Below are positions 11,454 through 14,237 of a stretch of DNA of 64,000 nt, one piece after another. This DNA comes from Escherichia coli (GTDB taxonomy: Bacteria > Pseudomonadota > Gammaproteobacteria > Enterobacterales > Enterobacteriaceae). The stretch lies in assembly GCF_003018255.1 (NCBI RefSeq), contig NZ_CP027441.1. The stretch is one strand, 5' to 3'. A program made the position numbers and the translations under genes. Under the pieces are notes generated by a model. That model ran no database searches and was not told the origin of the DNA. It worked only from the letters and a program-made list of their open reading frames with translations. Numbering within the stretch: the first letter of the stretch is position 1; each line of letters opens with the position of its first letter.

Positions 11454-12818
11454 ATGCAAAAAGACGACGATAAAGGTTTTGTTCTGTTTGAAATTCTGGC
11501 CGGACTGATTGTGATCGGTATCGCCACACCAATGATTTATTCAGAAATTGAAAACTGGCTGAATGAGCAGCTTTACCAGAGTGCTGCATATCATGCAGAT
11601 GCCTACAATACCGCAGCCAGAAACTATATTGCCGACAACAATGCCCGTCTGCATAGCGGCAGCCTTCCGGCAAATTTCACGGCTGATGATCTGATTCGTC
11701 AGGAATATCTGAAACAGGGGTTTAACCATTCTCCCTTTGGTCAGAGTTATATCACCGGTATCCGCCGTAACCAGACCACCGGGCGTCTGGAAGCCCTGAC
11801 CTGCTCAACTGGAGGGCAGACAATCAAAGAAGAAGGGCTGCGTAGTGTGGCGGGTCAGTTGCCGGGGCTGGGTGGATTTATCAGCAAAAATGGAACGGCA
11901 ACAGGCGCATTCGGAGCCTGGACAGATAAACCGGGAGACTACGGACTTACCTGTTCGACAGGTCACATCGCCGTCGTCATGAGCGGTGATGACCTGCAGG
12001 AAAGTGACCGTCTCTACCGTTTTCAGGTAGCAGGTCGTCCTGAACTGAATCAGATGCATACCGCAATCAATATGGGCGGGAATAACATAAACAACACCGG
12101 CAATATCAATGGTCAGAGTGCCACACTGAAAGGTGATATTACGAGTGAAGACGGCTGGCTAATCACCAGAAACAATAAGGGATGGATGAATATCACACAT
12201 GGTGGTGGATTCACCATGACAGACAGCCAGTGGATACGCGCGGTTAATGGCAAAGGCATCACAACCACCGGGGAAATCAAAGGCGGAAAAGTCAGTGGTG
12301 GTACAGTCCGGTCTGACGGTCGTCTTTCAACCGGGGAGTATTTACAGCTTGATAAAACAGCTACGGCAGGCACAAAGTGTGCACCGGACGGACTTGTAGG
12401 CCGCACCAGTACAGGGGCCATACTTTCGTGCCAATCCGGTATGTGGGCAGGTTTTGAATCCTACCCTGTCGGAAGCCCTATACCGTGGCCATCAGCCACC
12501 CCTCCACAAGGCTACCTGGTGATGAACGGGCAGTCATTTTCATGTTCCCGGTATCCTCAGCTTGCCCGTGCTTATCCCGGGTGTAAGCTGCCGGATTTGC
12601 GCGGTGTTTTTATCCGTGGCTGGGACAACGGACGTGGGCTGGATGGAGATCGGAACAGACATCTCCTGAGTTATCAGGCCGATCAATCCGGTGTCTATCA
12701 TGAGCGTGGGGGATGGCTGAAAGGGCATCACAGCGGTATGGCTTACTGGGCCCAGGGAAGCACAACGGAAATGCGCCCCAAAAACATTGCCTTTAACTAC
12801 ATCGTCAAAGCAAGCTGA
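11454..12818 (+). CDS. pilV: minor pilin / tip adhesin PilV with variable C-terminus
   Basis: 454 aa from MQKDDDKGFVLFEILAGLIVIGIA pilin-like N-terminus; two in-frame CAATCCGGT sites (Gln-Ser-Gly) in the 3' third; C-terminal 120 aa has phage tail-fibre collar-like motifs (LPDLRG, RPKNIA, YIVKA). Confidence 0.8.
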   Translation: MQKDDDKGFVLFEILAGLIVIGIATPMIYSEIENWLNEQLYQSAAYHADAYNTAARNYIADNNARLHSGSLPANFTADDLIRQEYLKQGFNHSPFGQSYITGIRRNQTTGRLEALTCSTGGQTIKEEGLRSVAGQLPGLGGFISKNGTATGAFGAWTDKPGDYGLTCSTGHIAVVMSGDDLQESDRLYRFQVAGRPELNQMHTAINMGGNNINNTGNINGQSATLKGDITSEDGWLITRNNKGWMNITHGGGFTMTDSQWIRAVNGKGITTTGEIKGGKVSGGTVRSDGRLSTGEYLQLDKTATAGTKCAPDGLVGRTSTGAILSCQSGMWAGFESYPVGSPIPWPSATPPQGYLVMNGQSFSCSRYPQLARAYPGCKLPDLRGVFIRGWDNGRGLDGDRNRHLLSYQADQSGVYHERGGWLKGHHSGMAYWAQGSTTEMRPKNIAFNYIVKAS

Positions 12819-13082
12819 TGCATTTAAGGCGTATTAACTTTTAACTTACAGCAACGTATTTTGACCCAGATCATGCTTCCCGAATATCCCGGTTTACCTC
12901 TGTACGCTCTGAATCCTGCCGCACCATAGCCTGCTTTGCCGTCACAGACGGCAAAGCCGTTTGAGCCACTACCCCAGTTCGCATAAACCGGTTTTCTGGA
13001 GTCTTCTTCTGCGTCATAACAGGCCGAATAATCAAAAAACAGTGCATCGCTGATATTATTCTTCCTGACACCGGATTGTTGC
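12428..13082. repeat. shufflon-type invertible region: three 19-bp sites sharing the core CAATCCGGT
   Basis: Sites at about 12428-12446 (GTGCCAATCCGGTATGTGG, forward), 12680-12698 (CGATCAATCCGGTGTCTAT, forward) and 13064-13082 (GCAACAATCCGGTGTCAGG on the reverse strand); the inverted site keeps the Gln-Ser-Gly frame and opens an alternative 80-codon C-terminus on the reverse strand. Confidence 0.6.
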
Positions 13083-13263
13083 TGCGTGCACTGGCCCAGG
13101 CTGCTCAGCGGGGTGAACGTGTCCCCACACCAGGCGAGCCACCCGCAAACATTGATGAACGGGTCATGATTTGTCCGTTAACAAACAGCCAGTTCATGAC
13201 AAAAGCGAACAGTATTTTCATATCCTCCTCCTGAACAAATAATTTTTGTTCAAAATTAACGCT

Positions 13264-13566
13264 ATGAGACCCTTTATGAAACACTTATCCCCCCGTGCAG
13301 CCACTGCGGATAATAATCGTATCGTTACAATTGAAGACGTTTACACAATCGCATTCTCGCAACCAATTCACACCGAATCAGCGTTGGGGCAAAGGTGGAT
13401 GTTGATCCATACTGGTGAATATGAAAGTGCCAGCGATGCAAAACGCTTCCTTGATCCGCTCGCCATCGGGCACTGTGCTTGCATGGTAACACCATCACCT
13501 GTTCTGGATCATGACATCTGGCTGCATATCCGCCTGCTGATGGGCGAGATAAGGGATACCAAATAA
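13264..13566 (+). CDS. hypothetical protein (about 100 aa)
   Basis: Track ORF 13246..13566 trimmed to first ATG; no motif; sits where rci would be expected. Confidence 0.3.
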   Translation: MRPFMKHLSPRAATADNNRIVTIEDVYTIAFSQPIHTESALGQRWMLIHTGEYESASDAKRFLDPLAIGHCACMVTPSPVLDHDIWLHIRLLMGEIRDTK

Positions 13567-13657
13567 ACATTCATGGCCCCAACGCATAAAAATAACGCCG
13601 GGGACTCTGGCAGTGGCACCATTCTTTTTACATAGAGCCAATATATAAACAACTTTT

Positions 13658-13978
13658 CTATGATAATATCTTTATCATGTTATAAATAATTGACCCCTCA
13701 GCAGAAAGGGCCCAAATAGAAAAAGCAAAAATCCTTATAAAAATATTCTTTACAAGCGTTCCTATATACAAACAAACTATATAAACCAGCCAGAACAGAA
13801 TGACTGCAAAAGAAACACACACGGCCCCCATAAAAATAAATGTCATCGAATCCCATGGTTTCACCAGTACAACCGGAACCATAGCTGCCAGAACAATAAG
13901 AGCAGCATTACCCAACAGCGTCTCTCGAATAATATCCCTTATAATCTCCAGTTTTTCTTTATGCTGTTTAATTTTCAT
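13658..13978 (-). CDS. hypothetical small membrane protein (106 aa), low-GC
   Basis: Two strongly hydrophobic segments; AT-rich composition unlike flanking genes. Confidence 0.4.
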   Translation of the reverse strand: MKIKQHKEKLEIIRDIIRETLLGNAALIVLAAMVPVVLVKPWDSMTFIFMGAVCVSFAVILFWLVYIVCLYIGTLVKNIFIRIFAFSIWALSAEGSIIYNMIKILS

Positions 13979-14237
13979 ATGAACCTCATTGATTTCATCC
14001 CGAAAAGGAAAAGATTATATAACGAAATACTTTCAATCTCCTGACTCCGTCTGCTCTGCAGCATAATGCCAGACCAGCGGCATGCTAAATCACGTCCTGT
14101 CCGAATCCTTTTCATTCACGCTTAAAACAGAGTTAAAAGCACTCTTGGAACACACTCGATCATAACGATCGAAATAACTCGTTTCCGTTCAGCAAACACG
14201 CTCTTTAGACTTAACATATGAACCGCACGGAGGTGAA

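Follow-up and report, generated by a model that had tools for sequence, protein, structure and literature searches.

The pilV locus described here is very probably a fossil shufflon, in which neither a recombinase nor a second competent crossover site is left and PilV is fixed with one C-terminal cassette, designated A. The locus lies in a 64,000-nucleotide stretch of Escherichia coli DNA, referred to below as the window. Lacking both, the segment cannot invert, and PilV would therefore permanently carry the tail-collar-type cassette A.

The window was compared with known plasmids. It was collinear with pO113 over 51.5 kb at 99.7% identity, and several STEC plasmids were 100% identical to it across positions 11400 to 15100. 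Besides this near-identity to pO113, the window carried R64-like pil and tra genes and epeA, the latter at a position corresponding to that in pO113; the IS100 of pO113 was absent. Judging from these matches, the window comes from a large STEC virulence plasmid of the pO113 type and carries its pil-tra region.

pilV, its cassettes and the crossover sites

The pilV gene (positions 11454 to 12818, plus strand; stop codon at 12816 to 12818) appeared as an intact open reading frame (ORF) in the ORF list and is annotated as pilV in both pO113 and pL2-87. It encodes a type IV thin-pilus tip adhesin of 454 aa. According to the Pfam search, Shufflon_N (PF04917) covered residues 34 to 329, the constant region, and ended exactly at the QSG (residues 327 to 329) of the Cys-Gln-Ser-Gly junction formed by crossover site 1. 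An NCBIfam search of PilV returned no family. The expressed cassette A follows (CQSGMW...VKAS; 129 aa; 12428 to 12818, plus strand) and is predicted to be a tail-collar-type receptor-binding module. Residues 340 to 387 of PilV matched the Pfam Phage Tail Collar domain. Cassette A was 99% identical to its pL2-87 counterpart and was homologous to shufflon cassettes and phage tail-collar proteins over 92 to 100% of its length.

In a crossover site of the sfx type, a 7-bp core is flanked by a left and a right arm of 12 bp each (PMC11852207), and crossover takes place in the core (PMC5350095). The sequence CAATCCGGT was found exactly three times in the window, at 12432 to 12440 (plus strand), 12684 to 12692 (plus strand) and 13070 to 13078 (minus strand), all within 650 bp. 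About 0.74 copies are expected by chance, and at least three copies occurred in 3 of 100 shuffles. The initial annotation had described three 19-bp sites here, two of them direct and read in frame as Gln-Ser-Gly. The three copies and the two readings (CQSGMW at site 1 and DQSGVY at site 2) were confirmed, but only site 1 proved to be a complete sfx. As a scoring reference, we used the seven sfx extracted from the R64 record, all of the form GTGCCAA TCCGGTNNNTGG, with 16 conserved positions. Alignment beyond the 9-bp core, which the initial annotation had left to be checked, held for site 1 (16/16), failed for site 2 (10/16) and failed in part for site 3 (12/16).

Site 1 (12416 to 12446, plus strand) is the sole intact sfx. 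It has a 12-bp left arm, the 7-bp core GTGCCAA (12428 to 12434) and the 12-bp right arm TCCGGTATGTGG (12435 to 12446). Its 19-bp sequence at 12428 to 12446 was identical to the R64 consensus GTGCCAATCCGGTNNNTGG. When the window and the whole of pO113 were searched with GTGCCAATCCGGT, allowing at most two mismatches, site 1 was the only match with shufflon context, and a second complete sfx was found in neither. A shufflon is expected to hold at least two complete inverted sfx (core GTGCCAA plus right arm TCCGGTNNNTGG); here, only the one at 12428 to 12446 was complete.

Site 2 (CGATCAA TCCGGTGTCTAT; 12668 to 12698, plus strand) is a pseudo-site and not an sfx, with a core agreeing at 3 of 7 positions and TAT in place of the terminal TGG. 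Since it shares a 13-nt identity, CAATCCGGTGTCT, with a pL2-87 sfx, we considered whether it could be a real site or an ancient crossover scar. Three observations ruled this out. Site 2 lies in an SYQADQSG motif of the tail-collar-type cassette, and YQxDQS is conserved in cassettes that are 67 to 70% identical; these cassettes stay homologous on both flanks of the site; and the predicted product of an inversion between sites 2 and 3 was found in none of 113 related plasmids. Site 2 is, on this comparison, best read as a coding coincidence within a conserved tail-collar-type motif.

Site 3 (13064 to 13094, minus strand) is a truncated hybrid sfx that coincides with a deletion junction. It retains the right arm TCCGGTGTCAGG (13064 to 13075), the core position now reads GCAACAA (13076 to 13082), differing from the site 1 core at 3 of 7 positions, the end is AGG, and the "left arm" is rci coding sequence. 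From the general behaviour of tyrosine recombinases, such a half-site would be incompetent for recombination.

The initial annotation had also predicted an alternative PilV C-terminus on the reverse strand, and such a reading was indeed found. The silent cassette A' (12824 to 13078, minus strand) is open over 84 codons from 13078 (QSG plus 81 codons), and the stop codon that follows at 12824 to 12826 lies 5 nt from that of pilV. Cassettes A and A' thus occupy opposite strands as alternative C-termini, each beginning at an sfx right arm, and the proposal that shufflon-type DNA with a silent alternative C-terminus is attached to pilV was supported. Compared with A' of pL2-87, the cassette was 96% identical, with three amino acid changes including W to R; the latter reflects mutation of the invariant Trp codon after QSG from TGG to AGG. 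The same TGG-to-AGG change of the half-site was present in the window, pO113, p3521 and pRM13745-2, and TGG was kept in another deletion carrier, pSTEC405_1. We interpret the loss of TGG as decay following inactivation. In at least 10 relatives, A' was fused in frame to the constant region of pilV, and p_STEC1585_1, the A'-displaying relative examined, had an intact rci. Therefore, the switch works where it is intact.

The deletion junction and the rci remnant

Next, the locus was aligned with that of pL2-87, which is 99% identical. Window positions 11400 to 13078 aligned to positions 1501 to 3179 of the pL2-87 locus, and 13069 to 15100 aligned to 4538 to 6569. Relative to pL2-87, 1,358 bp were lost, comprising the remainder of the second sfx, a third cassette, the third sfx, and the promoter and codons 1 to 337 of rci. 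The left end of the deletion is inside site 3, and the right end is inside rci, 166 bp short of the gene end. A three-way alignment with both pL2-87 sides localised the breakpoint to ATTG (13075 to 13078). The identical junction was found in pO113, p3521, pRM13745-2 and pSTEC405_1.

Immediately after the junction, the last 52 codons of rci and the stop codon are retained (13079 to 13234, plus strand). In a tblastn search, this remnant matched residues 350 to 389 of pL2-87 Rci at 97.5% identity over 40 residues (E=3e-20). It has no promoter, start codon or catalytic domain, and the equivalent stretch of pRM10466-1, a 100%-matching plasmid, is labelled "integrase; incomplete; missing N-terminus" in RefSeq. 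The initial annotation was correct in that tblastn found no intact Rci-related tyrosine recombinase in the window, and hence no functional one of this type, but it had missed these 52 codons, which are all that is left of the adjacent rci. Its suggestion to search the rest of the replicon was followed on pO113, the 99.7%-identical relative: no Rci homologue was found elsewhere on the whole plasmid, whose sole other tyrosine recombinase is a 268-aa integrase adjoining ccdAB.

These observations show how the locus very probably arose. The ancestor was organised as in pL2-87, with the pilV constant region, an sfx, an invertible segment bearing A and A', and an inverted sfx. Beyond these came a third cassette and one more inverted sfx, with rci at the end. 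A single deletion of 1,358 bp then fused the second sfx, broken in its core, to the last 166 bp of rci, leaving behind one intact sfx, one half-site, the silent A' and the 52-codon rci stump.

It is possible, though rather doubtful, that Rci itself made this deletion, by an illegitimate and self-inactivating excision between the inverted sfx and a weak pseudo-site in rci. On the left side, the break maps to four bases (ATTG) where the sfx core meets its right arm, the reported place of Rci crossover, and the two sites are directly oriented, as excision requires. By a rough post hoc estimate, if left endpoints were scattered at random from the pilV stop to the rci start, about 3% would land in an sfx core. 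However, asymmetric sfx are reported to yield inversions with Rci, not excisions, and the rci-internal site did not stand up as a significant sfx look-alike: it matched 9 of 16 conserved positions, and about 10 positions in the same orientation within a 1.5-kb region scored as high or higher. Alternatively, the deletion could be an ordinary, recombinase-independent microhomology or slippage event, for which the 4-bp microhomology, part of a wider imperfect repeat matching at 8 of 10 bases, suffices. If Rci did delete its own gene, this would be a natural case of a shufflon recombinase carrying out the excision it is thought to avoid, and the spread of a frozen tail-collar-type PilV with several virulence and resistance plasmid lineages might point to selection favouring a fixed adhesin.

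Before traE, the initial annotation had listed only two small ORFs, and our analysis placed two such ORFs between the remnant and the traE-like gene. The first (13276 to 13566, plus strand) encodes a conserved hypothetical protein of 96 aa; in pL2-87 and p_STEC1585_1 it comes after the intact rci. The second (13658 to 13978, minus strand) is a backbone gene, present in pL2-87, pO113 and p3521, for a conserved small protein of 106 aa, hydrophobic as read from its translation. Both are outside the shufflon, and the DNA of this interval has a low GC content (0.37). The traE-like gene (14238 to 15059, plus strand), annotated as hypothetical in pO113 and pL2-87, is the first of the tra block after the pil genes and shufflon, at the same position as traE in R64. 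NCBIfam gave no match for the 96-aa, the 106-aa or the traE-like protein.

Orientation of the locus in plasmids and genomes

We then surveyed the deletion junction in sequence collections. Among the PLSDB plasmids 40 had it, as did 38 of 5,426 complete E. coli genomes, always in one orientation (40/40 and 38/38), as counted on consensus assemblies, which low-frequency inversion inside a culture would escape. No record among 152 plasmids and 170 genomes combined the deletion with the inverted orientation, so that a comparison across consensus assemblies, between records, revealed no inversion isomers among deletion-carrying copies. The carriers included IncFIB/IncI-gamma plasmids of the pO113 type, the IncB/O plasmid p3521 and the IncK2/Z plasmid pSTEC405_1.

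Could the apparent deletion be an assembly artefact, i.e., a repeat collapsed in a mis-assembled shufflon? Shufflon regions are described as hard to assemble (PMC5430464; also Brouwer 2015 as cited). However, 40 complete plasmids that were sequenced independently and have different replicons share this junction, pO113, p3521 and many other complete assemblies among them, and its right breakpoint is in unique rci coding sequence and not in a repeat. An artefact is therefore hardly credible.

A further explanation is that the locus is still a functional, minimal one-segment shufflon, with Rci supplied in trans, e.g., by a co-resident IncI1, IncK or IncB/O plasmid, acting on site 1 and the inverted site at 13064 to 13082. 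Site 1 is a perfect sfx, and Rci enzymes of the I-complex share a consensus, as the R64 and pL2-87 sites indicate. A' is still open and in the correct frame, and single-segment shufflons are known in pO26-CRL125 and S. Typhi (PMC3817090). Against this, the left arm of the partner site is gone, as are 3 of its 7 core bases and, in this sub-lineage, the invariant TGG; in A', the invariant Trp codon has degenerated into one for Arg; and none of the carriers has the flipped junction. We consider a functional shufflon of this kind very unlikely. The initial annotation had offered two possibilities, an adhesin locked in one form or one depending on a recombinase in trans. The deletion, the lack of any further Rci or sfx across pO113 and the uniform orientation of the carriers favour the locked form; the second possibility is disfavoured, with one intact sfx on the plasmid, 3 of 7 positions different in the partner core and no flipped carriers.

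Comparison with other shufflons and implications

The locus shares with R64 (IncI1) the gene order pilU, pilV, shufflon, rci, traE and the sfx consensus GTGCCAATCCGGTNNNTGG, which encodes Cys-Gln-Ser-Gly-x-Trp where the constant part of PilV gives way to the variable part. R64, however, has an intact 384-aa Rci and a shufflon of seven sfx and four segments with seven cassettes. The present locus has one intact sfx and a half-site, two cassettes and the last 52 codons of rci, and its cassettes are not homologous to those of R64. The shufflons of pL2-87 (IncK2/Z) and of the pCT type (IncK) are closer. The pL2-87 locus has about 99% nucleotide identity on either side of the deletion, shares cassettes A and A', and has the two small genes in the interval from rci to traE; it differs in having three sfx, a third cassette and an intact 389-aa Rci. 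The S. Typhi pil locus, pO26-CRL125 and pO111-CRL115 resemble the window in that one segment selects between two PilV C-termini (PMC3817090), but these single-segment shufflons retain a recombinase gene and a pair of complete 19-bp repeats in inverted orientation; here, the second complete repeat and the recombinase are both missing.

The inactive shufflon of pO113 is already known from Cottell 2011 and the RefSeq annotation. Cottell 2011 described pO113, pO26_vir and pSERB1 as "apparently" having an inactive shufflon, with the recombinase absent or disrupted by an insertion, and multiple forms of the shufflon region were seen in the assembly of pCT (PMC3377399). Among the papers accessible to us, none gave the anatomy of the breakpoint, that is, the junction in the sfx core, the rci 3' stump and the later decay of the half-site. 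A shufflon from which rci is removed reportedly stays in a single conformation, and in the pCT rci::aph mutant liquid transfer was lowered only with Salmonella as recipient (PMC4083329). Loss of Rci function freezes PilV in one form in pO113, pO26_vir, pSERB1 and pCT rci::aph, as in the locus studied here. The thin pilus is presumably still produced, and the recipient range of the plasmid in liquid mating would be narrowed accordingly.

When pO113-like, p3521-like and related plasmids are annotated or compared, this pilV should be regarded as an adhesin fixed in a single variant, and the 159-bp ORF that follows should be labelled an rci pseudogene, not a new gene. Active shufflons make assemblies ambiguous; this region, with its fixed orientation, does not do so in these plasmids. 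The position of the breakpoint within an sfx core is a small hint that Rci can occasionally cause deletions. Finally, several successful plasmid lineages have lasted without the ability to switch adhesins, in keeping with the mild effect, limited to certain recipients, that is reported for the rci knockout in pCT.

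Plasmid background and the pilV crossover sites

pO113 (NC_007365.1) belongs to a family of large E. coli plasmids to which window positions 11400-15100 showed 99.9 to 100% identity. The window was collinear with pO113 throughout (99.7% identity, 51.5 kb aligned), the one notable difference being IS100 (istA/istB, about 1.95 kb), present at 65422-67377 of pO113 and absent from the corresponding spot of the window (about 62361-62365). The source is therefore a relative of pO113, not pO113 itself. Window segments 48919-51317 (2.4 kb, adjoining epeA) and 44046-45287 (1.2 kb) had second copies elsewhere on pO113, near espP (133947-136344 and 139823-141063), as inverted repeats with about 98% identity. 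This pattern suggests that the two autotransporter (SPATE) genes have duplicated flanks. A 528-aa ORF (39213-40799, +), with a sigma-70 region-4-like HTH (residues ~132-200) and a TnsA-like/restriction-endonuclease-like domain (~332-440), probably corresponds to the "unusual putative sigma factor" (pCT_066) reported on pCT (PMC4083329); the PLSDB gene table for pO113 listed no gene at the matching position. A divergent plasmid-borne gene for a predicted phosphoethanolamine transferase (41758-43314, -) adjoined a DUF2569 gene and an ECs1377-family gene. The best match of its product was of the CptA/EptA type (110 bits vs a cutoff of 404); E values against MCR families were ~1e-6 or weaker.

The region under study consisted of an R64-like thin-pilus (pil) operon followed by tra genes. 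The adhesin gene pilV (11454-12818, +) encodes 454 aa, of which Pfam assigned residues 34-329 to a Shufflon_N constant region and residues 340-387 to a Phage Tail Collar domain. The 64 kb contained three copies of the sequence CAATCCGGT, at 12432 (+), 12684 (+) and 13070 (-), spanning less than 650 bp; chance alone would give about 0.74 copies, and three were reached in 3 of 100 shuffles. The initial annotation had proposed these copies (sites 1, 2 and 3) as equivalent 19-bp shufflon crossover sites (sfx). We took seven reference sfx from the record of R64, the IncI1 reference shufflon, itself. All seven read GTGCCAA TCCGGTNNNTGG, a 7-bp core plus a 12-bp right arm, with a variable left arm before the core, in agreement with the published anatomy (PMC11852207; PMC5350095). 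Alignment to these sites showed that only site 1 (ggccatactttc GTGCCAA TCCGGTATGTGG) is a true sfx, perfect at 16/16 conserved positions, with 10/16 at site 2 (CGATCAA TCCGGTGTCTAT) and 12/16 at site 3 (GCAACAA TCCGGTGTCAGG).

Translation confirmed that the two direct copies read Gln-Ser-Gly in the pilV frame. Site 2 falls in the motif SYQADQSG of the expressed C-terminal cassette A (12428-12818, +), 3' of the collar domain. Salmonella shufflon cassettes with 67-70% identity keep YQxDQS there, and the homology extends to both sides, which rules out site 2 as a mosaic joint. The junction predicted for inversion between sites 2 and 3 was found in none of 113 PLSDB records with partial matches. 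The product of sites 1 and 3, the PilV constant region fused to the silent alternative cassette A' (12824-13078, -), was present without interruption in at least 10 related plasmids, one of which, p_STEC1585_1, was checked and had an intact rci. In nature, therefore, crossover takes place at site 1 and not at site 2. The reverse-strand reading of A' was indeed open from 13078; it comprised QSG plus 81 codons and stopped at 12824-12826, 5 nt past the pilV stop, rather than 80 codons and about 10 bp.

Site 3 as a deletion junction with an rci remnant

The IncK2/Z plasmid pL2-87 (NC_025145.1) matched the window at about 99% identity on either side of this region, yet was longer by 1,358 bp. There, the sfx in pilV is followed by the A and A' cassettes, one inverted sfx (GTGCCAATCCGGTGTCTGG), a third cassette, an identical second inverted sfx and an intact rci (389 aa). 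The third cassette (3195-3453, -, pL2-87 locus numbering), absent from the window, resembled the R64 cassette from the sfx at locus 4716-4746, the translations sharing by eye FTTQTYNI, LGVHAYC and WTYLNGSPFGGFQQVYSD. The same comparison gave no R64 counterparts of A and A', so the cassette repertoires of I-complex plasmids are mosaic. Every genuine cassette of R64 and pL2-87 starts with CQSGxW; the silent cassette of the window starts with QQSGVR.

The window tracked pL2-87 to ...CACCGGATTG, within the first inverted sfx, and then continued as TTGCTGCG..., found in pL2-87 166 bp upstream of the rci stop. The switch point fell within ATTG (13075-13078), the boundary between sfx core and right arm. 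Site 3 is therefore a deletion junction; by its sequence, it is an sfx right arm with three core bases, joined to the rci tail. The next stretch, 13079-13234 (+), codes for the C-terminal 52 residues of Rci (97.5% identity to pL2-87 Rci over 40 residues aligned by tblastn), and RefSeq labels its counterpart in a plasmid with a 100% match "integrase; incomplete; missing N-terminus". Thus, the earlier statement that Rci is missing holds for an intact gene, but this remnant had been overlooked.

The breakpoint lies exactly at the reported position of Rci strand exchange, which suggests aberrant excision by Rci. However, the partner sequence within rci has only 9/16 conserved positions, about ten nearby positions are as good, and excision between asymmetric sites is reported not to be carried out by Rci. 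A 4-bp microhomology event explains the junction equally well; at this point 8 of 10 bases are identical in the two parental sequences (CACCGGATTG vs CAGCGTATTG).

Distribution and decay of the deleted locus

PLSDB contained 40 plasmids with exactly this junction, and among 5,426 complete E. coli genomes it occurred in 38. The carriers had different replicons (pO113-type IncFIB plus IncI-gamma/K1; p3521, typed IncI1/B/O; pSTEC405_1, IncK2/Z; also pRM13745-2), which excludes an assembly artefact. This distribution points to a single ancestral deletion. Of the records with partial matches (152 plasmids and 170 genomes), none contained the junction expected from a flipped segment; all carriers therefore have one orientation. 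The invariant TGG of the half-site (site 3) was retained in pSTEC405_1 and was AGG in the window, pO113, p3521 and pRM13745-2, so this point mutation postdates the deletion, in line with release of the site and the silent cassette from selection. Compared with pL2-87, silent A' had 3 changes in 84 residues and expressed A had 1 in 129.

A shufflon fixed in one orientation

Using Rci of pL2-87 and R64 as tblastn queries, we searched the window and the rest of the replicon, as represented by the complete 165.5-kb pO113, and the remnant was the sole match. The only other annotated tyrosine recombinase on pO113 was a 268-aa integrase adjoining ccdAB, which from its position we take to be a putative F-type multimer resolvase. 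No second sfx was found on pO113. The locus thus retains a single competent crossover site, lacks a recombinase and is fixed in its orientation, and the adhesin is locked in one form, as initially proposed. The accompanying suggestion that the switch depends on a recombinase supplied in trans did not hold up as well: judging from the general behavior of tyrosine recombinases, such rescue is unlikely because the partner site has no left arm and is mismatched at 3 of 7 core positions.

Cottell et al. (2011) described pO113, pO26_vir and pSERB1 as "apparently" having an inactive shufflon, with the recombinase missing or interrupted (PMC3377399). Together with the RefSeq pseudogene annotation, this means that the locked shufflon is real but was already known; what is added here is the breakpoint anatomy, the identification of the sole true sfx among the three sites and population-level evidence that the lock is permanent. 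A shufflon is reported to stay in one conformation once rci is removed, and in pCT, rci::aph lowered transfer in liquid when Salmonella was the recipient, but not when E. coli was (PMC4083329). By analogy with the R64 and pCT shufflons, we infer that PilV would be made with cassette A alone and that the plasmid would no longer be able to change its recipient specificity during liquid mating.
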